From positions 355,844 to 419,843 of the forward strand of contig DDWV01000001.1 in the NCBI GenBank assembly GCA_002347045.1: a stretch of DNA of 64,000 nt. Direction: 5' to 3'. The DNA is from Candidatus Collierbacteria bacterium UBA2277. Its GTDB lineage: Bacteria; Patescibacteriota; Microgenomatia; UBA1400; MFAQ01. Under the pieces are notes generated by a model, which made no database searches, was not told where the DNA came from, and saw only the letters and a program-made list of their open reading frames with translations. Made by a program: the position numbers and the translations under genes. Shown one piece after another: positions 1,985 through 64,000 of this stretch (position 1 is its first letter; every line of letters begins with the position of its first letter).

Positions 1985-2719
1985 TTAGTTATTTTTTGAT
2001 TTTTCTGACATATGGATTCCGGCACTAAGTAGACTGTCAAAAGTACCAGCGTCTTCCCAGTAACTATCGAAGACACAGGCTTTGAACTCTCCCATCTCAA
2101 GATAGGTGTTGTTTACGCTTGGATTGCCACTTATCTCCAGTTCTCCTCTTCCGGAAGGCTTAAGGTTTTTGGCTATCTCTACAACTCGATGATCGTATGT
2201 GTACAGACCGACGGAAACAAACATCGATTTTGGATGTTCTGGCTTTTCTTCGATGGAGATGACATTGTTCTTTTCATCGAGCTCAACAACTCCTAGCCTT
2301 TTGACATCTTCGAGTTTTTTGAGTTCCTTGACGTAGATTTGTCCACCGGACTTAAATGCCTTGATTTGCTCTGAGAAGTCTTGGTCAAAAATATTGTCTC
2401 CGAGAACCATGGTAACATCATCGTTGTCGATGAAGTCTTCACCAATAATAAAGGCTTCTGCCAGCCCCTTTGGTTCTTTTTGGATAGCATAACTAAAATG
2501 AGCTCCAAACTGTTCACCCGTACCTAAAAGATTTAAAAATAGGCCTGAGTTTTCGGGAGCTAAGATAATGAGGATATCTTTGATGCCTGCCTTGATAAGA
2601 GTTTCAATTGGGTAGTAAATCATGGGCTTGTCGTAGATCGGCAAGAGTTGCTTACTAATTACCCAGGTAAGTGGCCTTAGGCGAGTGGCTCGACCTCCGG
2701 CAAGAATAATTCCTTTCAT
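1985..2719 (-). CDS. rmlA: glucose-1-phosphate thymidylyltransferase (short form)
   Basis: 244 aa. MKGIILAGGRATRLRPLT nucleotidyltransferase signature. Adjacent to rmlB/rmlD. Confidence 0.85.
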   Translation of the reverse strand: MKGIILAGGRATRLRPLTWVISKQLLPIYDKPMIYYPIETLIKAGIKDILIILAPENSGLFLNLLGTGEQFGAHFSYAIQKEPKGLAEAFIIGEDFIDNDDVTMVLGDNIFDQDFSEQIKAFKSGGQIYVKELKKLEDVKRLGVVELDEKNNVISIEEKPEHPKSMFVSVGLYTYDHRVVEIAKNLKPSGRGELEISGNPSVNNTYLEMGEFKACVFDSYWEDAGTFDSLLSAGIHMSEKSKNN

Positions 2720-2749
2720 AGACTGTTATTATACAACTGGTAATTGTGG

Positions 2750-3004
2750 TTATTTTAATAAACCTATAACTAAAATGCTTCCAAGAAGTGAAAATGCTGC
2801 ATATTCTAGAACGACTTTTGTCTCTAAAGTATGCTCTTTTGCGTGATGAAGAACGCCCCATATTATATATAGTATGGAAAAACTAATAATTATCACTTCC
2901 TGAATAGATTTATTGCCATTGAAATATAAGACCAGAATTACTGCGATCGAAGATATTAAAGTTAAGAGGAGATAGTCAAAAATATTTTTATTTCGCTTTT
3001 TCAT
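2750..3004 (-). CDS. small hypothetical membrane protein
   Basis: 84 aa with two hydrophobic helices. Overlaps the start of the CAP-domain gene by 4 nt, which suggests an operon. Confidence 0.4.
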   Translation of the reverse strand: MKKRNKNIFDYLLLTLISSIAVILVLYFNGNKSIQEVIIISFSILYIIWGVLHHAKEHTLETKVVLEYAAFSLLGSILVIGLLK

Positions 3005-3837
3005 AGGACAATTCCCTGACGAATAATGATAAGGATGATGGCTAGTGCGGCAAAGTACGTAAGGTGAGCCCAGGTTTTTCCAGAGATGCGAATAATGTTG
3101 TAGCGAAGAACAAATATCCAGTCAAGACTAAGGGCAAACACAATCAAGACCACAAAAGCCAGTGACCAGGCTCGAGAAAGATCCATGGGGGAAAGACCTG
3201 ACTCTGGAATGAGTTTTTCTTCTGCAAGAACCGTACTGACAACATTACTTGAGGCTATTCTAGCAACTGATGGTTGCTGAGTGGAGCCGAACATCTGAAC
3301 AACAAGAGTAGTTTCAACTCCGTTTATATATCCGTCCACAACGGCAATGCCGATGTCATGATAGCGGTCATCTAAGAGATTTTTGCGATGAGTGGGCGAG
3401 GCCATCCAGGCTTTGACAACATCTGTGGGATTGCTAAAGTCACGAGCTAGATTTTCGCCTGCGTGTAGATACTTGTAGCCTGAGCCAGTAACAAAGTACC
3501 ATGGCTCGGTACCAGTTGGACTTACGTGTGCCCAGTAATTGTTTTCAAACATGTCGGTTGCTTTGGCTAAAGCGGCTTGATTCAGGGCTGAGTTGTATTT
3601 GAGGGTGGAAACTCCAGCATTGAGACGCTCTTTGTTGGTTAGCTCTATTACAATGTCGGGGCTGATTTGAGAGGCGTAGCCAAGAACGCCTGGCTTGAGA
3701 CCAACGGTGATATCTACAATGGATCGGCCCATGATAAAGAGACCAATTAGTATCACTATCGACCTAGGCCATAAGATTTTTGCCTTGTGGTTGTTGTGAG
3801 GGTGAGGTGCAAAAAGAGTAATAATCGAGTGTGCCAT
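3001..3837 (-). CDS. CAP (SCP/PR-1/YkwD-like) domain membrane protein
   Basis: 278 aa. N-terminal TM segment. CAP hallmark ...VKAWMASPTHRKNLLDDRYHDIGIAVV. C-terminal TM helices. Confidence 0.7.
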   Translation of the reverse strand: MAHSIITLFAPHPHNNHKAKILWPRSIVILIGLFIMGRSIVDITVGLKPGVLGYASQISPDIVIELTNKERLNAGVSTLKYNSALNQAALAKATDMFENNYWAHVSPTGTEPWYFVTGSGYKYLHAGENLARDFSNPTDVVKAWMASPTHRKNLLDDRYHDIGIAVVDGYINGVETTLVVQMFGSTQQPSVARIASSNVVSTVLAEEKLIPESGLSPMDLSRAWSLAFVVLIVFALSLDWIFVLRYNIIRISGKTWAHLTYFAALAIILIIIRQGIVL

Positions 3838-5488: not shown

Positions 5489-8400
5489 TTATTTTTTGTT
5501 TGATGACTTAATAAATCTGATTCCGTATACCAAACAGACTAGGGCAAGCATAGACCAAGCTGGAGAAGCTCCTGTTGCTGGAAGGCTAGTTGAAGCACCG
5601 AGGACTTCACCTTCAACTTTTTTCTCTACATCGTAGGTTCCGCCATTGGTTTGATCCTTAATGACTTCAACGTCTGTACCGACGTTGTTTTCGTTAACAT
5701 ACTCGGAGTTTTCACCTAGAGCTAGAAAGGAAAGTCCTTGGTCGTAGGCGTCATCAGCAACAGCCCAGGCAAGGTCGGAATAGATTCCTGGATTAATATC
5801 TGAGGTAATGCTGGCTGTGTACTTGATAGTAATGGTGTCATCTTTTTCGTAATCACCTAAATTCCAGACACCTGGGGAGTGATACTCTGGATCACTGGCC
5901 AAAGTAACCGGTGCTGATCCTTTCATGACAGAGTATGATCCACTAAAAGAAAAACCATTTGGGAGAAGATCTGTGAGCTTTAGATTACGAACATTATTGT
6001 CTAACACTTTTATGGTAATGGTGTGTTCAACTGAAGATCCTGGAGATAAAGGTGAGGTAGCGTTGTTTGATCTACTGATTAGTAGTCTGGCGTCAACTTG
6101 CTTATTCCCAAAGTTGTATTCAGGACCAACTACTGCATTTTTTGAGATGATAAATCTACTTGAGTTTTGATCTGGAAGATTTACTTGGTGACAGGCTGGA
6201 TTAGGAAATGTCTGAGCCCAGCCTGATTTAAGCTCTTCGCACACTTCGTACTGACCTGGAAGTAGTCCTTCGAACCAGTACCAACCGAAATGTTTGTCTC
6301 CAGAATCAGTGACCTTGGTGTCGAAAAGTTCTTTTGTTGTTCCCTCGTCGCTCTCGGTTAATTTGTATAGATTGATTGTCCAGTCTGATAAAAGTGGTTC
6401 GGGAGTACAAACATAGTCACCTTCCACTACTCTCTCTAAGGACTGATCACAGGTTTGACGCATACCATCTCCATTAATATCACTCCACTTGAAACCATGA
6501 ATTGATCCTAAAACATATTGATTAAGAATTACGAGAGTTCTATTTGGACCAGCATCTAGCGCGAGATTGATTTCTCCATTTGAGTTGGTGTCGGCACCAT
6601 AAGTATAAAAATCATTAAGTGAATTTACAATCTCTGTATATTGATCATTGTACAGAGCGGTTTGCCAACCAGTTGAACCAGAGATTACCTCTTGGCTGTA
6701 AGTATAGTTGTCAATTGCAAGACCACTGTAAGTGATACAGTAGGCGTCGTCGCTTTCTGAGCTTGCTAGAAGCTTGGTGTTGGGGGTAAATCCTGATGTA
6801 AAGACAGTATCAGCTAAGCCTTTGTTCCAGTCAATAGTAAAGGTGCTGCTGCCCATTTCTGAACCATTGACAATATTTCTTTCGCCATCGATGATCATTT
6901 TACAGACCTTTATGGATCCGGTTGGTTTCGAAACCGTAAAGGTGTCTTCTGCATAACCAAAATAAACCCAATTGTTTGAATTTGAACAATTATTGTCACA
7001 TCTGCCAACTTGAATTTTCCAGGTACCGAGAGGAGCATTTGAAGGTAGTGAATAATCGCAAGTCACTGAGGAAGAATTAGTGTAATTACATGTTTTAGCC
7101 ACACTACCATTTGAGTCAATGTATCGAAGGCGCATGTTGGCTGCTGTACTTCGAGTTCCTTTTCCATAGACTGTTTGTCCGGTTATAAAATCATCCTTGG
7201 GGGTGGAATAAGTGTTTGAGCTATAAGTATCAACTGTATATGAGACTGCCGGAACAACACAGTTGTTTTCCCATATAGCTTGACCTTGTGTATCCCAGTT
7301 TAATCCGGGGTAGTATCCTCCGTAATATGAAAATGGAGGAATAATATCATTACTGTGACCTCCGTGACCAGTAGCACCTACGACAGAGTCATCATCTACC
7401 GTGAGATTTTGATAGTTTCCAGAGGCCCCAGAAGCGTGACAGACACGAACTTCTACATGTTGGATTTCTGTATATGAAACTACTACCCTGATAGTACCAA
7501 TGCGAACATTTGTGTTACCAACCTTGAGTACACCAATTTCAAGATTAGTATCATTTTTTTTAACAAAATCTGGAATATCAATTATTTGATCTCGTGCTGT
7601 ACAACCACTAAAACTTGTTGTTGCAAGGTTATAGCTCGCATCAGTATTTGTAGATCCAACACGAACAAATGTTTTATATGTTCCACCTATTGAACCACTA
7701 GCGCGGTCAGTGACATATATTCGAACACTGGTAACTGTGCTATTGTTTGGGATAGAAGATAGATTTATCTTAACTGATTCCCGATTCCCATTATGGTTAC
7801 TGGCAATATTGTCATTCCCGTCACTTTCTCCACACCGAGGAGTTCCATTTTCATCAACGTCACTTTCATCACCATTCCATTGATTATAAAATCCCTGTCC
7901 ATCAGGATAAAGTGTTCCAGTCGCAGCATCGGTGAAATCGTATGACGCAACAATTGATCCGTTGGTATCAGTAGCTTCGATCGTGTAATTTGGGCGGTAG
8001 TTGCCATCGAGAGTGAAGGAGAAAGAAATGTTGCCGTTTTCGTCTGAAGTTACTGTGGGATTGTAAATAAAGACTGGGTTGTCTAAAGAAGTGATCCTTA
8101 ATGTATAAGTCGTGTTAGGGAGGAAATTGATACCGGTGATGTAAACTGTGTCGGTTGGAAAGTAGTCTGGTTTGTCGGTTGTAAGTGTGGGTGAGACTTC
8201 AGAGATAGTAGACTGTCCGAGTTGAGCTACAACCGTATACTGTTCAGATAAGGACATGGTTGGGGAAGTTTCAGGCTCAGAAGAAGTGGAGTCGATAGAA
8301 GAAGGTTGCTGTTCATCTGACTGGGAAGGATCATCATTGGTTTCTGCTGGTGTTGACTCGGGAGATGTTTCGGGTGTGGTTTCAGGAACGATGGTTGGTT

Positions 8401-8599
8401 CTGGGGTAGTTTCCGGGTTTTGGTCGGGTGTGACTTCGGACGTGGTTTCCTGAGTTGGAGATTGCTCCACAATAACAGACTCAGAGGCAATATCTTCGGC
8501 ATAAACAGGCAAAGCTAGGGTAAGGGGAACAAAGGATTGAAGGGCTAGGCTAAAACAAGTAACTAAGGAAACTAATCTTCTTAGTTTTAGGAGTTTCAT
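5489..8599 (-). CDS. large LPXTG-anchored cell-surface protein (sortase substrate)
   Basis: 1036 aa. Signal peptide. Acidic Thr/Pro/Ser/Glu-rich linker. Long Cys- and Asn/Thr-rich body. C-terminal LPATG followed by a hydrophobic stretch and KSSNKK tail. Confidence 0.8.
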   Translation of the reverse strand: MKLLKLRRLVSLVTCFSLALQSFVPLTLALPVYAEDIASESVIVEQSPTQETTSEVTPDQNPETTPEPTIVPETTPETSPESTPAETNDDPSQSDEQQPSSIDSTSSEPETSPTMSLSEQYTVVAQLGQSTISEVSPTLTTDKPDYFPTDTVYITGINFLPNTTYTLRITSLDNPVFIYNPTVTSDENGNISFSFTLDGNYRPNYTIEATDTNGSIVASYDFTDAATGTLYPDGQGFYNQWNGDESDVDENGTPRCGESDGNDNIASNHNGNRESVKINLSSIPNNSTVTSVRIYVTDRASGSIGGTYKTFVRVGSTNTDASYNLATTSFSGCTARDQIIDIPDFVKKNDTNLEIGVLKVGNTNVRIGTIRVVVSYTEIQHVEVRVCHASGASGNYQNLTVDDDSVVGATGHGGHSNDIIPPFSYYGGYYPGLNWDTQGQAIWENNCVVPAVSYTVDTYSSNTYSTPKDDFITGQTVYGKGTRSTAANMRLRYIDSNGSVAKTCNYTNSSSVTCDYSLPSNAPLGTWKIQVGRCDNNCSNSNNWVYFGYAEDTFTVSKPTGSIKVCKMIIDGERNIVNGSEMGSSTFTIDWNKGLADTVFTSGFTPNTKLLASSESDDAYCITYSGLAIDNYTYSQEVISGSTGWQTALYNDQYTEIVNSLNDFYTYGADTNSNGEINLALDAGPNRTLVILNQYVLGSIHGFKWSDINGDGMRQTCDQSLERVVEGDYVCTPEPLLSDWTINLYKLTESDEGTTKELFDTKVTDSGDKHFGWYWFEGLLPGQYEVCEELKSGWAQTFPNPACHQVNLPDQNSSRFIISKNAVVGPEYNFGNKQVDARLLISRSNNATSPLSPGSSVEHTITIKVLDNNVRNLKLTDLLPNGFSFSGSYSVMKGSAPVTLASDPEYHSPGVWNLGDYEKDDTITIKYTASITSDINPGIYSDLAWAVADDAYDQGLSFLALGENSEYVNENNVGTDVEVIKDQTNGGTYDVEKKVEGEVLGASTSLPATGASPAWSMLALVCLVYGIRFIKSSNKK

Positions 8600-8733
8600 T
8601 GATTTTATTTAACAGTTTTACTGATCTAATATTTAGACCGGTTTCACTATTAGCTCCCTTATATCCAAAGTGACCATGTAAGGATATAGATCAATGCTCT
8701 CTAGGACGTATTGTACAGCTGGCCACAAGAATG

Positions 8734-9499: not shown

Positions 9500-9840
9500 A
9501 AATTTAATTTTACAATCAAGATGCTTGTAGTGATGATCCCGAGTGCGTCGATACCGACGTCTCTCAGGCGACCGGTTCTCCCCGGTACCAATAACTGATG
9601 AATTTCATCGGTGAAAGCGTAAATCAATGAAAATATAATTGCTTTTGTGGGATTTTTTTCTCCTATGGCTCTATACCAAAGGATAAAAAGGATAGAGTAC
9701 TCTAAAAAATGGGCCGTTTTTTTGAAAATGAAGTCTACAACATCGATATCGTTTGAAGGTAGCTCGGGAATTGATGAGACAACATATATCAGAACCATCC
9801 AAAGAACGACAGGAAGGAAACGGCTAATTTTTTGAGGCAT
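9451..9840 (-). CDS. VanZ-like family membrane protein
   Basis: 129 aa. KKTAHFLEYSILFILWY VanZ signature. 3-4 TM helices. The ORF overlaps tsaE by 49 nt, so the true start may be downstream. Confidence 0.55.
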   Translation of the reverse strand: MPQKISRFLPVVLWMVLIYVVSSIPELPSNDIDVVDFIFKKTAHFLEYSILFILWYRAIGEKNPTKAIIFSLIYAFTDEIHQLLVPGRTGRLRDVGIDALGIITTSILIVKLNLWKPLLSPLHSKKPGK

Positions 9841-11953: not shown

Positions 11954-12855
11954 TTTGATCGCTTAACAAACCTTGAAGTGGCAAAGAGACTAGAGAAAAA
12001 GGAGATAATCAAACCGAAAGTAATCAAGGAACCAAAAAGTATTAAGTAGACTGTGTAGTGAACTGGGAACGAGATGATGCTTCCGATTCTTGGAGCTAAG
12101 AATGGAGTGGAGTATAAAAGTACAATGAAACAGCCTAACCAGCCGATAATTGAACCTGATAAGCCGTAAATAACTGATTCTTGAAGGTATGGCTTGATAA
12201 TATATAAGTTTTTGGCACCCATAAGCTTAAAAGTTCTGATCTCGAAACGACGAGAGGAAATCTTCATGGAGATGATCGTCATGATAGTAAGAATGGCTAC
12301 AATAGTAAGGGCGATTACGAGAACAAGACCACCCATACGAATAGCGTTGGTCCACTTTGTGAGTTCGGCGACCACGTCTTGCGGATAATCAATCTCTTTT
12401 TTTCCTTGGGGAGTAATGCTGATCAGGTCACTGGCTTCAAGAGTTTTGGAGATATTGTCAAAAGACTCAGGGCTCTGGGCAGTAATCTCTACACTTGCCG
12501 GAAGAATATCAGCGGTGACTATTCCCCAGTCTGTGACAGTACCCAGAAGAACTGGATCGTTACCGACGCTCTTCTTGTATAGTTCAAGAGCATCTTCTTT
12601 GCTGATATAAATTGCTTTTTTTACACCTGTCGTAGCGCTAAGACTACTTAGAAGGCCTCCAACTTGTTCTGTCGTGTGACCGTCTTTGAGATAGGCAATT
12701 ATCTGTGGCTTTGTTTCAAAATTGTTAAGGATGATTTGAGAGGCAAAAGTAACGAGGGCAAAAATACCGACAATAAAGATAGTAAGACTAACAATAAAAA
12801 TGGCAGAGATCGCTTGATATGGTGAACGACGGATATTTTTTAGGGCAGTAATCAT
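11950..12855 (-). CDS. ftsX: cell division ABC transporter permease FtsX
   Basis: 301 aa. 4 TM with a large extracytoplasmic loop. Overlaps ftsE by 4 nt. Confidence 0.8.
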   Translation of the reverse strand: MITALKNIRRSPYQAISAIFIVSLTIFIVGIFALVTFASQIILNNFETKPQIIAYLKDGHTTEQVGGLLSSLSATTGVKKAIYISKEDALELYKKSVGNDPVLLGTVTDWGIVTADILPASVEITAQSPESFDNISKTLEASDLISITPQGKKEIDYPQDVVAELTKWTNAIRMGGLVLVIALTIVAILTIMTIISMKISSRRFEIRTFKLMGAKNLYIIKPYLQESVIYGLSGSIIGWLGCFIVLLYSTPFLAPRIGSIISFPVHYTVYLILFGSLITFGLIISFFSSLFATSRFVKRSK

Positions 12856-29588: not shown

Positions 29589-29662
29589 GGTCCCGTCGTC
29601 TAGTGGTCTAGGACATTTGGTTCTCATCCAAAAGATCGCGGGTTCGACTCCCGCCGGGATCA
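29589..29662 (+). tRNA. tRNA-Glu (anticodon CTC)
   Basis: Manually folded cloverleaf. Acceptor GGTCCCG/CGGGATC with one G-U pair. D-arm GTC-TAGTGGTCTA-GGAC. Anticodon stem TTTGG/CCAAA with loop TTCTCAT (U33, C34-U35-C36, A37). T-arm GCGGG-TTCGACT-CCCGC. Discriminator A. No encoded CCA. Confidence 0.85.
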
Positions 29663-31441
29663 CAAGTCCGAGTTTATGACCGAGAACTCTCGATCAATAA
29701 AGTCGGATAAAATTGTTTCGGGCAGGTTCAAATAGATGTCAATCGTATTTGGTATCATTTGTCCTTCCTTTTTCTTGCCTGCTATTGAGTCTTCCTTAGT
29801 CTTTGGCCTTGAATGAACAACTACTTGATAAACAAGGTCGTGTATGAGGTCGTACAAAGCCTTCTGATCTGCCACCCTACCTTCTATCACCTCTTTATAT
29901 CTTTCTCTGTACTGATTAAGTCCGAGTTCGTAATCTTCTGATAAATATGATTGACTGATGCTGTAGTCAATTTCCTTTATTTTTTCTTGATACTCGCTGG
30001 CCTTTAGATTAAGTTCGGCTAGTTTCTCTTTTAGGGTATCTGTATCTATTATCATTAGCACAGCATGTTGATCTTGATAACCTTTTTTACGACCTGGTAT
30101 GCCATTGAGGAGGTCTATATAGTGTTGTCGTCTTACTTCCAGATCAGCCAGTACCTCACTTTCAAGTTTCTTTGATCTAAGATTTCTGGAATACTCGTAA
30201 ACATGTCTAGGGTCTTTTAGAAGTTCTTTTACGAACTCAACAACATAGTTTTCAAGAGCTTCGGCTGGAATGGGTATGGTGGGACAGGTCTCACTATTTT
30301 TTGTGTCATTCTTACGATTACATTGATAATAGTAGGAAAACTTGTGGGGTGAGTTTGTGAGTTTCTTCTTTACGCCTGTCCATGTTGAATACTTTTCATT
30401 TTCGTTTACATCTCGTTTGCAATGGTCGCATTTGAGAAGTGAAGACAATAGATAGAGATGGTCGTTTTCTTCTTTCTTTTTATTTAGATTTTTTCTATCC
30501 GCTATTTGCTTTACGTATGTTTGAGAGATTTCAAATATGTGGAGAGGAATAATTGGTTTATGCCTGTAGGGTGAAAGTTTCCAATCTTGCTTGGGTAACA
30601 GCTTTCCATAATGTGATTTGTTGTAGTAGTAGAAACCTGTGTAAATCTCATCGGAGAGAATATCTCTGATCTGACCTGACATCCAAAAGTTGTTAGGATT
30701 GAGTTTGTGAACTTCACCTTTTCGTTTGCCATACTTTACAGCAGATACCTCTGGGCTTAGTATGTTATCTTCTGCTAGTTTGTTAGCGATTATTTGATAG
30801 CTCAATCTATCAAGAACGAACGTCTTGTAAATTCTTTTGACTATTTCTGCCTCTGCTTTCAATATGGCGATTTTGCCTTCTTTGTCTTTGATGTAGCCAT
30901 AAGGCGGATGAGTTCCCATGAACTTACCTTGTGATACAGCCGCCTCCTTACCCTTTGAAGTTCTTTCTTTAATTGTTTCAAGTTCAAGCTCCGCAATGAC
31001 TCCTAATATGCCCAACATGGCTCTTCCAAAAGGTGATGAAGTGTCAATACTTTCGGTAGCAGAAATGAACTCTAGTTTGTGCTTTTTGAATAGGTCGAGA
31101 ACTTCGAGTAAGATTTTTAGCTTACGAGCAAACCTGTCAATTCTGTAAACAGCGATAACATCGAAGGGCAAACCATCTTCTGAGTTGCTTATGTCCTCAA
31201 TGATTCTTGAAAAGGCAGGTCTCTCATTTAGGTTCACCACTCCGCTGACCCCATCGTCTGAGTAAATGTAGTTTTTGTCTGCGAGAACCATAGCTGGACG
31301 ACCATCTTTGAGCAATCCCCTGGACTTGATCGCCGCCTCGATCGTGCTTCTTTGAGCGTCTAAGCCATACTTTTCAACCTGTTCATCAGTTGAGACTCTG
31401 AGGTAGATTGCTACCCTGAGCTGTTTCTCGTCATTATCCAT
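29660..31441 (-). mobile_element. large serine recombinase / integrase CDS (resolvase-like catalytic domain, recombinase domain, zinc ribbon); its stop codon overlaps the 3' end of tRNA-Glu
   Basis: 593 aa. N-terminus VAIYLRVSTDEQ with the catalytic Ser. Large C-terminal extension with a Cys cluster (CDHC...C). TGA stop at 29660-29662 overlaps the last 3 nt of the tRNA. Confidence 0.9.
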
Positions 31442-31651
31442 TTATCTATATTTCTCTAATAAGTTCTCGGTAATCAATCTCTATTTAATCATAATAATTG
31501 TTTTCAGGCTAATTGGTAGAGAATGGGCAGGAACACTACCGAGTGACTGAGGAGAGTACGTGACAAGCCTGCCTGGCTGTTTTTGTGTGTTTTGATGAGT
31601 CATAAAATGCCAAAACCGTGCCTATTTGTTCCTATGTATTAGACCTATAAC

Positions 31652-31680
31652 TTGACAAATGTTGTTTTGTGTGGTATTAT
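31652..31680 (+). promoter_or_regulatory. consensus sigma70-type promoter: TTGACA (31652-31657), 17-nt spacer, TATTAT (31675-31680)
   Basis: Read directly from the sequence. Lies about 55 nt upstream of the AGGAGG SD (31729-31734) and the ATG at 31740. Confidence 0.6.
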
Positions 31681-31739
31681 ATGACAGTTCTTTGAATCAA
31701 CTAATCCGTCCAATTCAGCTCAAACCAAAGGAGGCTATC

Positions 31740-32099
31740 ATGCCTAAGAACGATAAAATGATCGGTTTGTCTCTCTCTCTCTGCGTTTCCCAGATTGCTC
31801 GTGGGGAAGTGAAAGAAGAAGATGTCGAGAAGATCATCGCCGCCACCAATGCCCCCGACCTCGCCACTTTCGAAGAAGTTATCGCCAGCTACTGCGAAAC
31901 CTACTGGCACGACTACCCCGAAAAGGCTCGCGAGATCGCGATGCGTTTCTGGAACAATGGCAATGTTGATCAGCCTCGCACCCGCGGCGAAGATTGCCAC
32001 TATATCGGCGCAGGCAAATGGATGGATCACGAACAAAACACCTTCCACTATGTGGACGGCAAGCGGCAGTATTCAGGCGAGAAGTTACGCGCCTGGTAA
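31740..32099 (+). CDS. hypothetical protein encoded by a compositionally alien (GC-rich) gene
   Basis: I prefer the internal start MPKNDKMIGLS... (120 aa), which has a perfect AGGAGG SD 6 nt upstream; the ORF track begins at 31659. Local GC is ~53% against ~30-37% in the flanks (counted on two 60-nt lines). No family recognised. Confidence 0.5.
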   Translation: MPKNDKMIGLSLSLCVSQIARGEVKEEDVEKIIAATNAPDLATFEEVIASYCETYWHDYPEKAREIAMRFWNNGNVDQPRTRGEDCHYIGAGKWMDHEQNTFHYVDGKRQYSGEKLRAW

Positions 32100-32103
32100 C
32101 CAT

Positions 32104-32149
32104 CCCCCCAAGTAAGGAGAAATCTCCTCGCAAGGGGGGATTTTCTTTT
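32104..32149 (+). terminator. intrinsic terminator: CCCCCC...GGGGGG outer stem with inner GGAGA/TCTCC hairpin, then ATTTTCTTTT
   Basis: Starts 5 nt after the TAA of the GC-rich gene. The T-tract is on the + strand only. Confidence 0.6.
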
Positions 32150-32154
32150 GTCTG

Positions 32155-32586
32155 CTATTGATTGCTATTATTTGTTTTTATCCTTAGCTCACCTTCGAGT
32201 TTTTCTATGTGCTGTTTGAGATCAAGGTTGCCTGTGTTCATCATTTTGGAGTTTCTCTTTTGGGCTTTGTCAATTAAGGCTAGAGAAATAGCTTTGATGG
32301 CGAGATTGATGTACATGGCGATTACACTGGCCGTTTTATTGCTTGTATTATTTGCCCTAACATCATTTATCACCTGTTCAATTAAGTAAACTATATCTTC
32401 GTTGTTTCTGAGAATAATAGGCTCTTGGTCTGCATAACTTCTTTTAAGACTTTTGCCTCCGTTCATTACTGCCTCTAGGTGTTTATCTTTGTGCTTCTCG
32501 GAATGAGAGAAGCAAAACTCGTCATCTTTGACGGCGTAAGCATTACACTGACTGCCGTCTGGTTTGATAAAGTTACATGTTTTCAT
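32155..32586 (-). CDS. hypothetical protein with N-terminal Cys-rich (zinc-ribbon-like) segment
   Basis: 143 aa. C4, C14 and C25 followed by SH, then a charged helical region. Island cargo. Confidence 0.45.
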   Translation of the reverse strand: MKTCNFIKPDGSQCNAYAVKDDEFCFSHSEKHKDKHLEAVMNGGKSLKRSYADQEPIILRNNEDIVYLIEQVINDVRANNTSNKTASVIAMYINLAIKAISLALIDKAQKRNSKMMNTGNLDLKQHIEKLEGELRIKTNNSNQ

Positions 32587-32625
32587 ATTTGTTTGGTTAG
32601 ATAAGCTAGTGGGGTTGTTAATAAC

Positions 32626-32662
32626 AAAAAACCCAGATTATACAACTATGTAGCCTGGGTTA
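32626..32662 (-). terminator. intrinsic terminator on the minus strand (AACCCAG...CTGGGTT stem, then UUUUUUG on minus-strand RNA)
   Basis: Sits between the 32787..33119 gene and the 32155..32586 gene. Confidence 0.5.
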
Positions 32663-32786
32663 TCTCTCTATCGGCAATCGCTTGCCCCTCTTAGTTTCTC
32701 GTTTAATTACTAAGATTCGGATTGTTTAGCAAACAATCAAAAGTAACTTGTTAATAATTTCAGTTTAGCCCATTTATCCAGCTCAA

Positions 32787-33119
32787 TCAAATATCAATCG
32801 ACGGATTTCCATTCTGTTTCTCGATTTTCTTGCCTCTAATTTCCATGTGGATTTTATGTAGAAGTGAAAATCCTAAGTCCATTGTGGACATGAACTTTAC
32901 ACTGAGTTGTTTGACTGGACTCTGAGGAGTATCGAAGTTAATTACTTTTGTGTTAGGGTGTTCGAGAATAGTACCAGGCTTGACAAGCTGTCGTATAACG
33001 TCCTTTAGTAGAGGTAAGTCTTCGATTGATTGTTTTGCTTGTGGAGATTTTGTCCTGTTTGCCATGGCTGATTCTTCCAAGCCCTTTAAGAAGGTTTTCA
33101 ATTTCTCGTTGTCGTTCAT
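32787..33119 (-). CDS. hypothetical protein
   Basis: 110-aa ORF. No motif recognised. Island cargo. Confidence 0.4.
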   Translation of the reverse strand: MNDNEKLKTFLKGLEESAMANRTKSPQAKQSIEDLPLLKDVIRQLVKPGTILEHPNTKVINFDTPQSPVKQLSVKFMSTMDLGFSLLHKIHMEIRGKKIEKQNGNPSIDI

Positions 33120-33249
33120 TCTTACCTATTCTAACAATCTTGCTGTCTATTTGCTTGTGGGTGAATACGAGCATGAACTTATTCGAGTTGTTGAGAGTGA
33201 CTATCTTTTTGTCGGGGAGTTCCTGGTCATAAATGCGATCTGACACTTT

Positions 33250-33840
33250 GTGAATTTTCGCTCTCGTCAGGATACATGCTATCATTTTATGGTGAGACCC
33301 GATAATGACAACCCAAATTTGAATTTCGAAATAATTCAACTTCCAGTATCTGACTGGAGGAAATATAAATCTCTTCGGCTTGAAGCTTTGAAAACCGACC
33401 AACAAGCTTTTGCAAAGACATATGATGATGAAGCTACATATCCTGATGAAAAATGGATAGAAAGAATTGAACGAACTAAAAGTGGAGATGCCTGGATGTA
33501 CTTTGCCAAAGATACGGATACTGATGAGCTTGTAGGGATGATTGGAGGATATAGAGATGAAGAGAACCGAGCAAAGCACTCAGCCCAAATCTGGGGAGTA
33601 TATGTTCACCCTTCTCGTAGAGGAAAGGGATTATCTAGTTTATTAATGAGTAGAATTTTGACTGAGTTTGAGAAAAATGAAGATATTGCAAAAGCTGTAT
33701 TGGAAGTAAATGTAGATCAGCCTTCGGCAATGAAACTTTATGAAAAGTTTGGCTTTTCTGTAATAAATAGATTTACCTGCACACTCGGGGATGGAAAAAA
33801 GCATGAAGTGTGTATTATGGAAAAAGAGTTGAAACGATAA
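33250..33840 (+). CDS. GNAT family N-acetyltransferase
   Basis: 196 aa. Acetyl-CoA pocket motif RRGKGLSSLLMSRIL. Typical GNAT length. The true start may be an internal Met. Confidence 0.75.
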   Translation: MNFRSRQDTCYHFMVRPDNDNPNLNFEIIQLPVSDWRKYKSLRLEALKTDQQAFAKTYDDEATYPDEKWIERIERTKSGDAWMYFAKDTDTDELVGMIGGYRDEENRAKHSAQIWGVYVHPSRRGKGLSSLLMSRILTEFEKNEDIAKAVLEVNVDQPSAMKLYEKFGFSVINRFTCTLGDGKKHEVCIMEKELKR

Positions 33841-33848
33841 TTCTGTTT

Positions 33849-34379
33849 TTATCGGTGATTGGACAAATATTGCGAAAGTTGTCTGATTGGAGATTCAGTA
33901 TTATTTAGATCTTTATATATTACCCCACTTGCATTTGCTTCTTTGAATTTCTTGTTTGCTCTCATATCTGTAGAAAATCCAAATACTTTTCCCGGAAATT
34001 CTTTTTGATTAAGAATCTTTACTAAATCTGACCCCTTAATACCATTTGCCAAATTGTAATCAATTAAAACAGCATCAGGATTTGTTTTAATTAATTCATC
34101 AATTATTTCTTCTATTGTCTGACCTTGATGATAAATGAATGTAGCTTTGCCGTTGGTTTCGACGAGTAATCTTGGAACAAATGTTCCAAAAACAATCTCT
34201 TGATCATCTATCATCGTAATTTTTTTGTCTCTTAGATTTTCTGTACCAACAAGGGGAATTGGTAGAGTGTCTATAAAAGCATATTCTCCCTGAATTGTTT
34301 TTAAAATTGATTTGGCTTCTTTAAATAAATCTTTCTGCTCATCATTTTGGGGGTTTTCAATTATTTCTGAATAGTCCAT
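33849..34379 (-). CDS. CheY-like receiver-domain protein (orphan, N-terminal ~50-aa extension)
   Basis: 176 aa. KKITMIDDQ...(acidic pocket), AVLIDYNLANG (phospho-acceptor Asp position), FSTD (S/T), YKD (Lys). This pattern is consistent with a receiver fold. Confidence 0.45.
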   Translation of the reverse strand: MDYSEIIENPQNDEQKDLFKEAKSILKTIQGEYAFIDTLPIPLVGTENLRDKKITMIDDQEIVFGTFVPRLLVETNGKATFIYHQGQTIEEIIDELIKTNPDAVLIDYNLANGIKGSDLVKILNQKEFPGKVFGFSTDMRANKKFKEANASGVIYKDLNNTESPIRQLSQYLSNHR

Positions 34380-34551
34380 GTTTTTATCATACAGTATTCA
34401 TAATATTTGTTGAACAATTTTCTGCACTGAGATTAATTCACAAACTATTTGGTTCAGGTTTTGTATACTTGGGGTCACCTCAAAGAAGTGGGTTTGGTCA
34501 TCTCACAGATTGATTGAGAAAAATATTTTGTATTTCATTTGGAGATAAATC

Positions 34552-35298
34552 TTATGTTTTTTTATTGAGCCTAATTTCCAAATCTTCTAAAAATCTTGTA
34601 TATAGTTTAGTTTCGGAAACTATATTCCTTGCCGTGAAATCAGGATACAATCTCCATTGATCAAAGTAAGAAGAAAAGTCAAAGAGCGTAGGTTTGTCTC
34701 CCTCAATAATGACGTTGTTTAACTTCCAAAACCTTTTTCCATCAATAATCTTTTCTCGAAGATAAAGATCTGGTGCCCAACCTTCTTGTTTAATTAATCT
34801 GATAACTCCGAAGGCTAATTCAGCAAACTCCCTTTTTGTTTTTGACGAAAGGGTTTCGGTATCAATTAAATCAGCTTCTTTCCCCATCAATCTTGATTGT
34901 CTGATTGTATTTATTAACCCTTTGTCGGTATAGATTCTCTCAAAAGTACTATCAAGAATAAACTTATCAAGATATTCTTTACATAAATTGTACGAAGATA
35001 TTGTCTTCTCTAAATAATTCTCAGTATTGACCTCTTTGAATGCGCCTGAAGGAACTTTAATTATTTCATCTTCGTTAGGTAATGAATATGCTGCCCATTC
35101 CCAACCAGAACCAATTAGCTTTGAACCAGAAATATATGAAAGGCTTTGGGGAGGAGAGGGTCTTTTGTATGCAATACTCTTGAATTGTTTTTCCAATCTA
35201 TTTATTTCAGATGAAAGTTCTGCTTCAGAAGCTCCTCTTGTCAAAAGATCTTCCATAAGCCAATGTTTATTATTTGAAGCCCTTATTGTACGGTTCAT
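34552..35298 (-). CDS. hypothetical protein with protein-kinase-like motifs (RIO/Kdo-kinase/APH-like small kinase fold?)
   Basis: 248 aa. Gly-rich loop-like IGSGWEWAAYSL followed by IIKVP (VAIK-like). DFG-like KPTLFDFSSY. No canonical HRD. Overlaps the HAD gene by 4 nt, which suggests an operon. Confidence 0.4.
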   Translation of the reverse strand: MNRTIRASNNKHWLMEDLLTRGASEAELSSEINRLEKQFKSIAYKRPSPPQSLSYISGSKLIGSGWEWAAYSLPNEDEIIKVPSGAFKEVNTENYLEKTISSYNLCKEYLDKFILDSTFERIYTDKGLINTIRQSRLMGKEADLIDTETLSSKTKREFAELAFGVIRLIKQEGWAPDLYLREKIIDGKRFWKLNNVIIEGDKPTLFDFSSYFDQWRLYPDFTARNIVSETKLYTRFLEDLEIRLNKKT

Positions 35299-35903
35299 AT
35301 CCTTACTGAAACTCCCCTTAATTGCTCTAAGTATATTTCAAATCCTTGAAACAGAAAGGTTGTGATTCCTACAGCTTTTGCACCTGCAAGATTTTCAGAG
35401 TTATCATCGGCAAAAATAATTGATTTAGGATCAACCCCTGACTTATTGACAAGAGCAGTAAAAATCTTCTCGCTTGGTTTACTTTCACCAACTTGAAAGG
35501 AGAAAATTGAAAAATCAAAATCTTTTAAGAAACCAAACTTTTCTTGAAGTCCATTCACTCTTGCCGGAAAATTGTTGGAACAAATAGCAGTTTTATATCC
35601 CACCTCACGAAGTTTTCTAACTGTTGAAACGACATTTTCGTCGACTTCGTATCCATCGATTAGTGTCTTCACTAATTCATGCCATGATGAATCAAGTTTC
35701 CATTCTGAGATAGCCCAAGTCCAAAATTCTTCATCTGTCATTTTTCCATTCTTGTAGTCTTGGTTCATCTGGGGAGACTTCAAGAACACTCTCTTGGCTT
35801 CGTTTTCACTAACACCAAAATTTTCTATGGATTTTATAAAATTCGCTTTTCCGTTGGGAAAATATACTCCGTCAAGGTCGAAAGTGATTACTTTTATGTC
35901 CAT
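35295..35903 (-). CDS. HAD-superfamily hydrolase (subfamily IA-like)
   Basis: 202 aa. Motif I ITFDLDGVYF. Conserved S/T and K motifs. Motif IV FADDNSENL. Confidence 0.8.
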   Translation of the reverse strand: MDIKVITFDLDGVYFPNGKANFIKSIENFGVSENEAKRVFLKSPQMNQDYKNGKMTDEEFWTWAISEWKLDSSWHELVKTLIDGYEVDENVVSTVRKLREVGYKTAICSNNFPARVNGLQEKFGFLKDFDFSIFSFQVGESKPSEKIFTALVNKSGVDPKSIIFADDNSENLAGAKAVGITTFLFQGFEIYLEQLRGVSVRI

Positions 35904-36146
35904 TCTTAATATTTCTCTTTTCTTAAATACTTATATAATTGAAGTATAACAATGTTGTAAGTTTGAAAACAAACAAGACTCGATTATGATCCTCGTTTTA
36001 TAACTGGTTCCTTGGTATTTCACAGCCTTACAGTCTTTTTGTCTGATTGCAACGATAGTTTGTTTTCCAACTATTTAACCGTACGAAATATTGGTTTTAC
36101 CCCTTGTCACAAATTGTTCCGTTTCAGCATACCCAGGATCACATTT

Positions 36147-36581
36147 TTAGTAGGTTTGAGCGCTTGCGGTTGCCATAAATCTACCAATAGAGATCGATTG
36201 AGCTGTTAGAGCACCATTTGTAGTGTTCCCAATTATCATTACTTCTAAACCAACTTTTAAATCATCTGTTGTACCCTCTGAGGTAATATTTATCTTTGTG
36301 TCTCGAGATAAAAGAATAATATTGTTACTACCGTTATTCCCCTGAACAGTAATACTGTTGTCATCTATGCTGATAACATTCCCTTCCATCGGTACTCCGT
36401 TTCGCGAGTTTCCATTTTTTATACTTGTTCCACTCTGAATTGGGACTCCGTTTCCTTGACGACTGGTTAAACTTTGCGGAAAATTTACTTTCTTCGATTT
36501 CTGAAACGTGGTTCCAGCAAAGAAACCAGAAGAAAAAACTAAAACCCCAACGACTATGGAAAGAAATATGTTGTTTTTCAT
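36147..36581 (-). CDS. hypothetical secreted/membrane-anchored Asn/Gly/Ser-rich protein
   Basis: 144 aa. N-terminal hydrophobic segment. Last gene of the TCS-ABC operon on the minus strand. Confidence 0.45.
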   Translation of the reverse strand: MKNNIFLSIVVGVLVFSSGFFAGTTFQKSKKVNFPQSLTSRQGNGVPIQSGTSIKNGNSRNGVPMEGNVISIDDNSITVQGNNGSNNIILLSRDTKINITSEGTTDDLKVGLEVMIIGNTTNGALTAQSISIGRFMATASAQTY

Positions 36582-61748: not shown

Positions 61749-62237
61749 ATGACATATTTCAATCGAGGAGGATTCGGAGGTGGTCAAGGAGGAAGACCAA
61801 GTTACAACAATCGTGATTCAGGAAGACAGGAAATGCACAAGGCTACCTGTGAAGAATGCGGTAAAGACTGCGAGGTTCCTTTTAGACCCAATGGCAGCAG
61901 ACCAGTATACTGTAGTTCTTGTTTTGAGGCTAGAGGTGGAGGAAGCTCTGATAGACCTCAGTCTAGAGATTATGGCCGAGATAACTCACGAAGTTTTGGA
62001 AGAGATAGCTATTCCCCAAACAGAGGTAACAGAGATGAAAGACCGGCGTCAAGACAAGTTGACTATTCTGGAGATTTTGCAGCTTTGAACAAAAGAATTG
62101 ACAAAGTAGTAGAGCTTCTGTACGTACTTAAACAACAGAACCAGGGTGATGATGTAGTAGAAGTAAAAAAAGAATCAACTAAAAAAGCACCTAAAAAAAT
62201 AGTTAAGAAGGCAAAGAAAAAGACACTAAAAGTTTAA
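61749..62237 (+). CDS. Gly/Arg-rich CxxC...CxxC zinc-ribbon protein with basic C-terminal tail
   Basis: Start placed at the internal ATG (MTYFNRGGFGGGQGG...). CEECGKDCEV..16 aa..CSSC treble-clef-like pattern. KK-rich C-terminus. Followed by a terminator. Confidence 0.5.
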   Translation: MTYFNRGGFGGGQGGRPSYNNRDSGRQEMHKATCEECGKDCEVPFRPNGSRPVYCSSCFEARGGGSSDRPQSRDYGRDNSRSFGRDSYSPNRGNRDERPASRQVDYSGDFAALNKRIDKVVELLYVLKQQNQGDDVVEVKKESTKKAPKKIVKKAKKKTLKV

Positions 62238-62258
62238 TCTATCTTTTTTACAAAAAAA

Positions 62259-62283
62259 GCTGGAGATACTCCGGCTTTTTTTG
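62259..62283 (+). terminator. intrinsic terminator GCTGGAG-ata-CTCCGGC plus T8
   Basis: Lies 22 nt after the 61749..62237 stop. It also lies inside the annotated 3' end of the 62234..63910 ORF, which argues that this tail is not coding. Confidence 0.65.
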
Positions 62284-62313
62284 TGCTTAAAATGGTAGAA
62301 TATACGGGTACAT

Positions 62314-62385
62314 TGCCGGATCGTCTAATGGTAGGACGTCGCCCTCTGGAGGCGAATATTCTAGGTTCGAGTCCTAGTCCGGCAA
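62314..62385 (+). tRNA. tRNA-Gln (anticodon CTG)
   Basis: Manual fold. U1:A72 acceptor TGCCGGA/TCCGGCA, which is a bacterial tRNA-Gln hallmark. D-arm GTCT-AATGGTA-GGAC. Anticodon stem TCGCC/GGCGA with loop CTCTGGA. T-arm CTAGG-TTCGAGT-CCTAG. Discriminator A. G37 is atypical. Confidence 0.7.
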
Positions 62386-62460
62386 CAGAAAGGGATTCCC
62401 CGCCCGTTTTCGTGGTAGTCGCCCGCGCGCCCGCCCACGCGCGGAGCGATGCGAAGGGCT

Positions 62461-62480
62461 TTTCCCATTCCACAATAATC
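62461..62480. repeat. left copy of 20-bp imperfect inverted repeat gcggagcgatgcgaagggct
   Basis: Its reverse-complement partner at 63981-64000 reads gcggagcgatgctcagggct, an 18/20 match. Both copies are GC-rich in an AT-rich background. Confidence 0.6.
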
Positions 62481-63980
62481 TGTTTATCTTTCAAAAAGAA
62501 GTTCGAACCGATGTTTTGGACGAAGATCCGCAGATCTGAGTCCACGGAACCCTTGCGCGCGATTTTTTGCGCCATTATGGCACTATTTACAAATTTAGAA
62601 AAAGGTTCGAGCCAACTACAACCTTCTTCCTCTGTTTTGGATATCTGTTGCTCAAGCTTTAGCTTTTCTTGGAATAATTGACTCTTTTTGGTTTTGTAGA
62701 CATCGGAATCAACTGTGCCGTCCAGATATCCATCGAGTAAGACATTGAGTTTGGTATCAAAGCTTTCGGTTTGAGTATGAAGCAAAGCGAGAACTTTTTC
62801 TTTGGACTCATCCGCTAGGACTTTATCTTGTGCCAAACGAGTTTTCCACTCAGATTGCCAAGATCTGGGGAGGGCGGAGGACTTAACCTGACTCTTTAAT
62901 TGACCGAAGAGTTTGTTTTCTTCCAGATACGGCTGAGAGCAGGCCTTAATTTTCTTAGTACAGCGGTAGTAAATATATTTGACTGTTCTGTTTGTTCTAC
63001 GATAGTTTTTGATATGTTGCTCAGCCGTGATGGTAGCGCCGCACTCACCACACCGCATTAGTCCAGAAAAAGCAAAGTCGTGACTGGTTTCTCTTGGTCG
63101 AGAAAGCTTTTTGGTTCTTTCTTGTACTTTCTCAAAAAGTTGTTTGCTGATGAAAGTCGGGTGGGAAGCCGGAAACTCCTCGCCATTAAACTCCATCGTG
63201 CCGATGTAGAACTTTTTCTTAAACATCTGAGATATTTTGTCGATTTTGAGAGGCTTCCCCTTGCCCGACTGGATTCCATTGTCAAAAAGAAAACGAGTGA
63301 TACCTGCGAAAGAAGTTTTCCCTTCAGCAAACAACTCAAAAGCTTTCTTGATTATTTTTGCTTTTTCCGGATCGATGTCAATCGATTTGTTCTCCACTAT
63401 ATTCTTGTAGCCAAGAGGGGCTTTGTTCGGCCAAACGCCATTCCGTAACTTTTGTCGATTACCTCGCTTTACATTTTCACTTAGGTTATCGACATAGTAT
63501 TTAGACTGGCCAAAAGCGATGTTGAGCATAAACTTGCCTTGAGGGGTGTTTTCAAACCAAAACGATGGGAATTTCAGATCAACGATTATGCCAGTATCAA
63601 CGAGGTAGATTATTTGTCCGCCATCGACCGAGTTTCTGGCCAGTCTATCTGGGTGCCAACTGAGAATGGCGTTGGCTTGGCCGGACTGGAGAAGCTTCAT
63701 CATTTGCTGAAAGACTAATCTTCCAGGTTCTTTGGCCGTTTTGCTTTCAACTAATGTTTCGACAATGTGAAGCTTCTCCCTCTTGGCGAATTCTTTGAGT
63801 TCGGCAATCTGAGCCTCAATCGACAAAACTTGTCGATCCTTCTCATCTGTGGACTTCCGACAGTACGCAATGTACTTTGTCATACATTCATTTAACCATA
63901 AATTACCCAAAGCTTCCGCAGAAGTTTACCGAATTCATTTTTGCGTTTTCTGTCGCTTTTTGAAAGATACAGATTATTAA

Positions 63981-64000
63981 AGCCCTGAGCATCGCTCCGC
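63981..64000. repeat. right copy of inverted repeat (agccctgagcatcgctccgc); truncated by window end
   Basis: See the partner at 62461-62480. The repeat may extend beyond the window. Confidence 0.6.

Follow-up and report, generated by a model that had tools for sequence, protein, structure and literature searches.

A small integrative element at a tRNA-Glu gene of Candidatus Collierbacteria, with a serine integrase gene that probably runs across its own attachment site

This report concerns a stretch of 64,000 nucleotides from Candidatus Collierbacteria bacterium UBA2277 (contig DDWV01000001.1; hereafter the window), in which the gene of a large serine recombinase (LSR) faces a tRNA-Glu gene and ends within its last bases. 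We think it very probable that positions 29663-33244 of the window are a 3.58-kb integrative mini-element, inserted directly after the discriminator base of this tRNA-Glu(CUC). This judgement is meant for our best explanation as a whole, that is, for the anatomy of the element, its attachment (att) sites, the clade of its integrase, the location of attP inside the integrase open reading frame (ORF) and the replacement of the integrase tail. The relatives of its seryl-tRNA synthetase (SerRS) place the host in Candidatus Collierbacteria, within the candidate phyla radiation (CPR, or Patescibacteria). The initial annotation of this DNA had described the tRNA-Glu(CTC) gene and a convergent recombinase of 593 aa whose stop codon overlaps it; ARAGORN, Rfam, the ORF itself, Pfam and PHROG all agree with that description, and the suggestion that the recombinase marks a mobile element integrated at the tRNA 3' end is borne out by the att arms and by the empty sites in two related loci.

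The protein is a typical serine integrase in its architecture. Its N-terminal resolvase-type catalytic domain (Resolvase PF00239, E 8.4e-33) is followed by a recombinase domain (Recombinase PF07508, 1e-14, 55 bits) and a four-cysteine zinc ribbon (Zn_ribbon_recom PF13408, 4e-09, 37 bits), all three scoring above the Pfam gathering scores, and it matches the integrase family phrog_95 (E 2e-96). The catalytic set with its nucleophilic serine and conserved arginines (Y13, R15, S17, D102, R103, R106) and the zinc-ribbon cysteines 338, 341, 374 and 386 are invariant in 35 homologues; with a complete ORF and these residues in place the recombinase is intact, which answers a reservation (a dead or fragmentary recombinase) that the initial annotation had itself raised. 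An AlphaFold2 (AF2) model, which is a prediction only, contains the catalytic, recombinase and zinc domains and a long coiled coil (helices 424-446, 448-461 and 467-520, pLDDT mostly 83-95), the insertion known from serine integrases. The top Foldseek matches of this model are serine integrases on att DNA (9dxh and related entries), Bxb1, LI Int and PhiC31, the full-length ones (9dxh and related, Bxb1) with E-values of 1e-17 to 1e-19 and identities to the solved integrases of 14-20%. The domain order and the catalytic Ser/Arg set are those of the integrases of phages and of integrative and conjugative elements (ICE), such as Bxb1, PhiC31, A118/LI Int, SPbeta SprA and TP901-1. The protein belongs neither to the SCCmec Ccr nor to the XisF equivalogs of NCBIfam (XisF 114 bits against a cut-off of 375, CcrB 111 against 900, CcrA 88 against 700, CcrC 77 against 900). 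This enzyme probably catalysed the insertion of the element. Scans of the element genes with Pfam, PHROG and NCBIfam gave no candidate for a recombination directionality factor (RDF).

The ends of the element can be recognised by comparison with related genomes (L-numbers denote comparison loci: those in the range L003-L013 are from related Collierbacteria, those from L036 upward carry members of the integrase family). The gene order PBP-SerRS-HD-GreA-tRNA-Glu is kept in 10 of 11 related loci, the eleventh (L013) stopping short of GreA, and the recombinase is absent at tRNA-Glu in all 11. In seven of them (L003-L007, L009 and L010) the tRNA-Glu gene beside GreA is identical to ours at 74 of 74 positions, so that relatives do have the same tRNA without recombinase, as had been anticipated. 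Two loci serve as empty sites: in L003 tRNA-Glu is followed by CA, by CTTTGTGAGG and then directly by the orthologue of a receiver-like (REC-like) gene of the window (87% amino-acid identity), and in L004 by CA and CTCAGAGAGTTTTCGCTCTCGTCAGGGTACAT. The identity of the window attL to both sites extends through ...GGGATCACA and breaks afterwards. At the other end, the flanks of both empty sites match B', the host part of attR: in L003 over the first 10 nt (CACTTTGTGA), and in L004, with the AC core included, at 85.7% over 35 nt (33243-33277). The initial annotation had proposed to look for a tRNA-Glu joined to the flank at 36.1 kb; empty tRNA-Glu genes were found, but joined to the flank that begins at 33245 in the window.

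The far ends of this and other elements were located by scanning upstream of each integrase for an inverted copy of the integrase 3' end. In the window, the P arm at 33219, which is followed by ACACTTTGTGAATTTTCGCTCTCGTCAGGATACAT, is the best match to the LSR 3' end on both strands of the whole 64 kb; it has 17 matching positions under either reading (25-mer plus CA, 24-mer plus AC), and a score of at least 17 was reached in 1 of 60 simulated sequences of 64 kb. L134 offers a clean case: its element separates tRNA-Arg from tRNA-Lys, two genes that are direct neighbours in L039 and L132, and its distal junction has a 25-nt inverted copy (16/25) of the integrase 3' end; tblastn with the conserved peptide encoded beside the P arm gave the distal ends in three further loci and a partial one in L145. 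Both ends are now available for ten elements of 3471-4360 bp, in which a GT/AC core is invariant at all 20 junctions and is flanked by 24-nt inverted P and P' arms (GTTCnnGGTGAGAA...) that match each other at 13-17 of 24 positions. The comparison of attL, attR and empty sites confines the crossover to A73-C74-A75, and the attR sequences of L036 and L045 narrow the core to AC, which is the symmetry centre of a 50-bp attP (24+2+24 nt). In the window attL and attR share only ACA. These are short sites with imperfect dyad symmetry around a 2-nt crossover and without extended attL/attR identity; the phage and ICE serine integrases likewise have an attP of about 50 bp with imperfect inverted repeats, a 2-nt crossover and no long identity between attL and attR. 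All positions are collected in Table 1.

Table 1. Positions of the att sites, element genes and adjoining genes in the window
Feature	Position	Strand	Basis or remark
Host tRNA-Glu(CTC), integration target, intact	29589-29662	+	ARAGORN 29589-29663; Rfam RF00005 29589-29662, 64.2 bits
attL	29642-29687	.	B arm, core AC and P' arm
attL B arm	29642-29661	.	tRNA T-loop/acceptor 3' strand, GTTCGACTCCCGCCGGGATC
attL core AC	29662-29663	.	tRNA A73 and next base
attL P' arm	29664-29687	.	Last 8 integrase codons
LSR, 593 aa in integrated state	29660-31441	-	Pfam and PHROG matches; convergent with tRNA-Glu
Cargo gene o146, 146-aa ORF (JGI call: 119 aa from 31740)	31659-32099	+	Strand opposite to LSR
o143, small ORF with Cys/His-rich N-terminus	32155-32586	-	ORF list; integrase strand
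o110, ORF-B family member	32787-33119	-	Overlaps 3' half of tail frame
Detached integrase 3' end (tail, ORF-A), 96 codons plus stop	32953-33243	-	In frame with LSR codon 593 when circular
attR	33219-33277	.	P arm, core AC (33243-33244) and B'
attR P arm	33219-33242	.	GTTCCTGGTCATAAATGCGATCTG; inverted match to P' 17/24
attR B'	33245-33277	.	ACTTTGTGAATTTTCGCTCTCGTCAGGATACAT
attP junction of the window element, reconstructed			GTTCCTGGTCATAAATGCGATCTGACAAGTCCGAGTTTATGACCGAGAAC
attB junction of the window element, predicted			GGTTCGACTCCCGCCGGGATCACACTTTGTGAATTTTCGCTC
GNAT acetyltransferase	33250-33840	+	PF00583, E 3e-18
REC-like protein	33849-34379		PF00072, 2.5e-05, below gathering score
o248 ORF	34552-35298		No Pfam or PHROG match
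HAD	35295-35903		PF00702, E 2e-18

Other placements of the crossover were considered and rejected. A crossover at CA (nucleotides 74-75) or at C72-A73 does not fit, since AC is all that the attR of L036 and L045 have in common with attL, and the symmetry centre falls on it. A boundary near 33846 (GNAT stop/REC-like stop), which the comparison with L003 alone would have given, was abandoned because the P arm at 33219 and the L004 flank reveal the GNAT gene as a separate indel, and the 2-nt cores TC, GT and AA at that place fall on the same grounds.

The integrase is not an isolated case. It has more than 120 full-length homologues at 43-56% identity, and the few that carry a source name come from CPR lineages (Levybacteria). 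We hold it to be very likely, as part of the explanation given above, that these proteins form a large CPR-specific clade which occupies the same position of at least 10 different tRNA or tmRNA (t(m)RNA) genes, in elements mostly of 3.5-4.4 kb. The homologues fetched are convergent with a t(m)RNA gene, with their last conserved leucine codon at its 3' end: tmRNA (L036-38), tRNA-Lys (L039, L041), and tRNA-Leu plus tRNA-Gln (L042). Nineteen loci were scanned for tRNAs (18 from a metagenome scan with a C-terminal profile, and L045 from a viral scan), and in all 16 that have a detectable downstream t(m)RNA the leucine codon directly adjoins its 3' end, as it does in four further arrangements; the expectation that homologues would sit at tRNA genes was thus correct. 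The targets in the scanned loci are Lys-CTT, Lys-TTT, Arg-TCG, Glu-CTC, Glu-TTC, Ile-TAT, Gly-TCC, Ala-GGC and tmRNA. The C-terminus of the clade is conserved (...LNLPQxLLxELYTQKFGVKSDNL), and 72 of 104 family proteins stop right after the conserved leucine. Longer members continue with W/C-x-x-R-D/E-S-N-P, which is the antisense translation of acceptor stem and T-arm, and at least 21 of the other 32 proteins have tails with this signature. Direct evidence that an element moved between different tRNA genes comes from L135/L136 (= L145), where an element of about 11.8 kb, 99.9% identical over 10.3 kb, is found in two samples, at tRNA-Glu(CTC) in L135 and at tRNA-Ile(TAT) in L136.

A few loci of the family deserve a description of their own. 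The cargo of the 11.8-kb element includes a caspase-helicase fusion, a tyrosine recombinase, an MgsA_C protein and an SNase/Excalibur nuclease. L040 has the same integrase, element and distal host flank as L039/L041 (99.98% over 9782 nt), with the tRNA-Lys side replaced exactly at the core (locus position 9782) by a defence island (ThsB-TIR, SLATT, LexA-like, methylase, McrBC) which opens with P-arm-like sequence; this junction could reflect either a tandem insertion or rearrangement at the att site. A search of 2.9 million viral contigs found one family member, L045 (L143; IMG/VR UViG 3300020195_001091, 10,084 bp), with an element of 4.3 kb. Its attL side is P-arm-like sequence, not tRNA, and nearby are an IS1595 transposase, a Fic protein and another copy, in inverted orientation, of the tail/P end and of an HTH_7 gene; possibly this flank, too, results from tandem elements or rearrangement.

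The most unusual feature is the relation between the integrase ORF and attP. The TGA stop of the LSR is the reverse complement of T71-C72-A73 of the tRNA (29660-29662), in agreement with the overlap of the last three tRNA nucleotides noted initially. Its G and A are host bases (the complements of C72 and T71), and the element therefore carries no integrase stop of its own. When the ends are joined at the core, the integrase ORF stays in frame for 66-121 more codons, in ten elements out of ten; in the window the junction reads ...VINSDL, then SDRIYDQELPDKK..., the P' arm being the last eight codons of the integrase and the P arm encoding the first eight residues of the tail. With attP located within its integrase ORF, the free circular element very probably encodes a longer integrase (689 aa here), from which integration detaches a tail of 96 residues. 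The att site in its own ORF and the splitting of the gene on integration are the marks of a self-disrupting integrase. The first 50 or so tail codons are conserved (S.TDSHQELP.DYIIP.EYYDKY.LVFSHY.IDRKI.RIG.NE.Q) and vary at 0.27/0.28/0.51 in codon positions 1/2/3, with 511 synonymous versus 945 nonsynonymous differing codons; the residues that they encode are under purifying selection. The remaining tail overlaps ORF-B and has no coding signature in the tail frame. By tblastn, the tail occurs as a single copy in the window, at 33243.

We propose the following scenario. Recombination by the serine integrase would insert the circular element after A73 of tRNA-Glu, with crossover at the AC dinucleotide (A73 and the next base) between attP and the chromosomal site, whose B half-site is the T-loop/acceptor 3' strand of the tRNA. 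The circle would make the long integrase of 689 aa, its ORF running across attP, and integration would swap the last 96 residues for a stop borrowed from the tRNA antisense strand. The swap may well alter the activity or the direction of the enzyme. We would go one step further only as a conjecture, and one that we are inclined to doubt: these CPR elements could be the bacterial serine-recombinase counterpart of the archaeal 'suicidal' integrases, with the tail swap as a built-in direction switch that needs no separate directionality factor (long form when circular, short form when integrated), or with the detached tail as such a factor, and with an enzyme that reads the universal T-arm as a half-site. 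The anatomy of the element is well supported by the sequence comparisons; the function of the tail swap and the recognition of the T-arm are put forward as hypotheses.

The idea of T-arm recognition comes from the arms themselves. Across elements the B arm has the consensus GGGTTCGAnTCCC-N7-C, then AC (T-loop, T-stem and acceptor 3' strand), while the B' arms are not conserved. The GTTC motif is 20 nt from the core in the B arm and 24 nt in both P arms. An offset between attP and attB half-sites is said to have been described for LI Int by Rutherford and colleagues in 2013, and the greater distance of the P-type motif from the core may echo it. The zinc domain would be a candidate for the reader of GTTC, and the T-arm for what the enzyme reads; this would explain why any t(m)RNA with C72-A73 can serve. 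The T-arm as half-site would offer a landing pad present dozens of times in every genome.

Several known systems resemble this one in part. SCCmec Ccr and Tn4451 TnpX also drive small or medium elements with an LSR. Ccr uses the 3' end of rlmH, a conserved housekeeping gene that is not inactivated by the insertion; its target is a protein gene, whereas here it is a tRNA, and the Ccr models of NCBIfam give 76-111 bits against cut-offs of 700-900. The circular junction of Tn4451 forms a promoter for tnpX, so that the state-specific feature is a promoter there and a changed coding sequence here. The phage and ICE serine integrases differ from our clade, which targets the extreme 3' end of many t(m)RNA genes, has attP inside the integrase ORF and is carried by elements of 3.5-4.4 kb without phage or conjugation genes. 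The Islander/TIGER-type t(m)RNA islands of tyrosine integrases share with our element the integration on the 3' side with the gene left intact, the integrase at the tRNA-side edge and a hotspot that takes up serial insertions. Their crossover, however, is in the anticodon loop, T loop or acceptor stem, and here it follows the discriminator; nor is there in our case a tyrosine integrase (no PF00589 match among the nine ORFs scanned, 29660-36581) or a direct repeat of the tRNA 3' segment, only AC(A) being common to attL and attR.

Closest in logic are the SSV1-type 'suicidal' tyrosine integrases, which have the recombination site in their own gene, target tRNAs and are fragmented by integration (PMC8371274). 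With these our LSR shares the att site in its own gene and the tRNA target; since the former work by tyrosine chemistry in archaea and the latter by serine chemistry in CPR bacteria, this can be an analogy and not membership. Unlike them, the LSR loses only its last 66-121 codons, and because all recognised domains remain in one piece the integrated copy may stay active. In mycobacteriophage BPs, attP lies inside the 3' part of the repressor gene and the products of the free and integrated states differ in their C-terminus (PMC4557955). In BPs and its relatives integration splits the repressor gene and removes a degradation tag, and the integrase belongs to the tyrosine type, while here the split gene is that of the serine integrase itself.

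As far as the literature that we found goes, a clade dedicated to t(m)RNA gene ends with att inside its own ORF appears not to have been reported previously. Serine integrases are described as 'not known for targeting tRNA genes', and in a survey of 2168 genomes 44.5% of tyrosine integrases but only 14 of 297 serine integrases used t(m)RNA genes, the latter being called previously unreported and in need of proof (PMC7192596). Self-splitting integrases are exclusive to archaea according to a review (PMC8371274). Our full-text search of the literature turned up neither CPR serine integrases that use tRNA genes nor any serine integrases devoted to such genes, and no bacterial integrase with att in its own gene. 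We have here a whole serine integrase clade dedicated to the last base of t(m)RNA genes, against the textbook view of non-use, and, for an arrangement thought to be a speciality of archaeal tyrosine recombinases, a bacterial serine case. Few self-contained integrative units are as small as these elements (3.5 kb, with a single cargo gene). Little is known of how their hosts, the CPR bacteria, exchange genes, and the cargo of one relative is an Erm/KsgA-like rRNA methyltransferase. Finally, serine integrases are prized for genome engineering, where a compact 50-bp attP and a half-site common to all tRNAs might be useful; an intrinsic state switch, if true, would add to that value.

The following observations speak against our explanation, or parts of it. 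A junction-spanning profile found no fused, long-form protein in 5.8 billion database proteins, and no circular junction was found in databases, so that the excised form is reconstructed and not observed. Gene callers annotate the tail as a separate protein of 97-105 aa from an NTG junction codon, and this codon could start translation in seven of the ten elements. AF2 gives the tail no confident fold, either alone (pLDDT 55) or fused (pLDDT below 50 past residue 586), and the tail of the window is the most divergent of the ten. The L040 and L045 integrases adjoin non-tRNA DNA. There is no empty site from the same species: L001, L002 and L151 are all occupied, and exact-protein look-ups of GreA, DUF5666 and GNAT returned occupied copies or nothing. 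As to T-arm recognition, the idea depends on one 4-nt motif and its spacing.

The alternative that survives best concerns the surroundings of the element. In a composite hotspot, the 3.58-kb element would be the newest arrival and 33245 to about 36146 older accessory DNA from earlier elements at the same tRNA; we give this serious weight, a little short of an even chance. The genes 3' of tRNA-Glu form a different set in each related genome, and two contigs of metagenome-assembled genomes, L005 (position 1) and L011 (position 5), start exactly at the tRNA-Glu gene, which together make this site an insertion hotspot; strain differences there are probably why assemblies break. The first 32 nt after CA in L004 match the B' flank at 33246-33277, and the L004 sequence runs on into an 81-aa relic of an LSR2-type gene end (L004 reverse complement 12667-12811). 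From the 35-nt homology leading into this relic, the tRNA-Glu flank probably hosted elements before, and our element seems to have inserted next to the stump of an older one. The stretch up to about 36.1 kb, which may be debris of earlier elements, has a low GC content (0.31-0.36 at 33.7-36.2 kb), and 33.2-36.1 kb is not syntenic in most relatives. L003 has no GNAT gene between the conserved CTTTGTGA and the stop codon of the REC-like gene; this indel is distinct from the LSR element. On the other hand, 33.3-36.2 kb contains no second integrase, att arm or tail homologue, no right boundary can be defined for the accessory stretch, and the REC-like gene, the direct neighbour of the tRNA in L003, has diverged (87% identity) like the housekeeping genes, as a vertically inherited gene would. 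The initial annotation had counted all these genes as island content. Its view of 33.2-36.1 kb as accessory DNA holds for GC content, lack of synteny and the 35 nt matching the flank of the L004 relic, but the GNAT, REC-like, o248 and HAD genes are outside the 3.58-kb LSR element. Its gene labels were right for GNAT, for a weak receiver-like protein and for HAD, and could not be confirmed for a 'kinase-like' o248; the return to an ordinary operon beyond (DUF5666/MacB/ABC/HlyD/HK/RR) is confirmed.

It is less likely, in our opinion, that the tail (ORF-A) is an independent small gene at the edge of the element and that its frame continuity across attP has no functional meaning. Some 35 database proteins of 97-105 aa do start at the junction codon, which is ATG, GTG or TTG in seven of ten elements, and the length and the C-terminal ...LLN are fairly well conserved. 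However, the integrase has no stop within the element, so the circle must read into the tail, and it does so without intervening stop in all ten; three of the junction codons (CTG, TAG, TAG) cannot initiate; half of the start codon would have to come from the host, and the element provides no ribosome-binding site ahead of it; and no autonomous fold is predicted by AF2. We see very little chance that the recombinase is an immobile relic or a domesticated host gene which is beside a tRNA by accident. No excised form has been seen and the gene is present in all contigs of the window species, but none of the 11 related loci with this tRNA has it, its ORF, catalytic residues and both att arms are intact, an identical element of the family occurs at two different tRNAs, and more than 100 homologues lie at many t(m)RNAs.

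The least probable of all is the single 6.5-kb accessory island of the initial annotation (29589-36146, closed by a tRNA-end remnant at 36131-36143), for which the 13-mer whose last 8 nt equal the tRNA end is indeed present and the DNA at 33.7-36.2 kb is low in GC and mostly non-syntenic, but against which stand an 8-mer at chance frequency, a far better attR with host flank at 33219-33277, the REC-like gene next to the tRNA in L003 with 87% identity, and a tail homologue at 33243 only. The proposed attR at 36131-36143 was accordingly rejected: its 8-mer, GGATCACA, is present three times in the window where 1.95 copies are expected, a count that was also attained in 33 of 100 shuffles. Even with up to 3 mismatches allowed, the last 24 nt of the tRNA have no further copy in the window, and none would be expected, since attL and attR have only 2-3 nt in common in this integrase family.

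Returning to the 3.58-kb element, it consists of the LSR, three small ORFs and one cargo gene of foreign composition, o146, in a stretch of GC 0.47-0.50 (31500-32250) against 0.37-0.42 nearby; the initial annotation had already recognised it as alien. This gene has no Pfam, PHROG or NCBIfam match and only six database homologues, some of them outside LSR elements, and it occupies the variable-cargo position of related elements. That position is held in L139 by an rRNA adenine dimethylase (2644-3558, minus strand; RrnaAD, E 3e-50), of a family that includes the Erm resistance methylases and KsgA. The short elements have a common layout: attR, ORF-A and ORF-B in overlapping frames, a variable gene on the opposite strand, a small ORF, the LSR and attL. 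ORF-A and ORF-B are both conserved across elements by BLASTP (for ORF-B this is the sole basis), the former fairly constant in length and in its C-terminal ...LLN. o110 matches the ORF-B of L039, L127, L133, L134, L138 and L139 (E 1e-8 to 1e-14) and nothing in Pfam, PHROG or NCBIfam. The small ORF upstream of the integrase is an HTH_7 protein in L134 (66% identical to that of L127), a family of 205-230 aa in four elements, and o143 in the window, which has no match in the three databases and none by BLASTP to the small ORFs of other elements. PHROG and Pfam scans found no phage, replication or conjugation genes in the short elements; within the window element only the integrase matches PHROGs, and structural, packaging and lysis genes are absent.

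A second, unrelated LSR of 558 aa with all three domains, 21% identical to the first, is encoded at 62234-63910 (minus strand). Its 3' end reads antisense through the whole tRNA-Gln(CTG) gene (62314-62385, plus strand), and it is 90% identical to the second LSR of L042, which overlaps tRNA-Gln(TTG) in the same way; targeting of tRNA ends thus seems to occur in at least two LSR clades of CPR bacteria. Its element body runs past the end of the window. Inverted repeats at 62441-62498 and 63956-64000 (22 nt at 91%, 14 nt at 100%), cut by the window end, pair the 3' coding region of this second LSR with DNA just upstream of its start. Elsewhere in the window, a c-di-GMP-II riboswitch (8627-8710, minus strand; 54.9 bits, gathering score 53.5) lies upstream of a 1036-aa ORF at 5489-8599.

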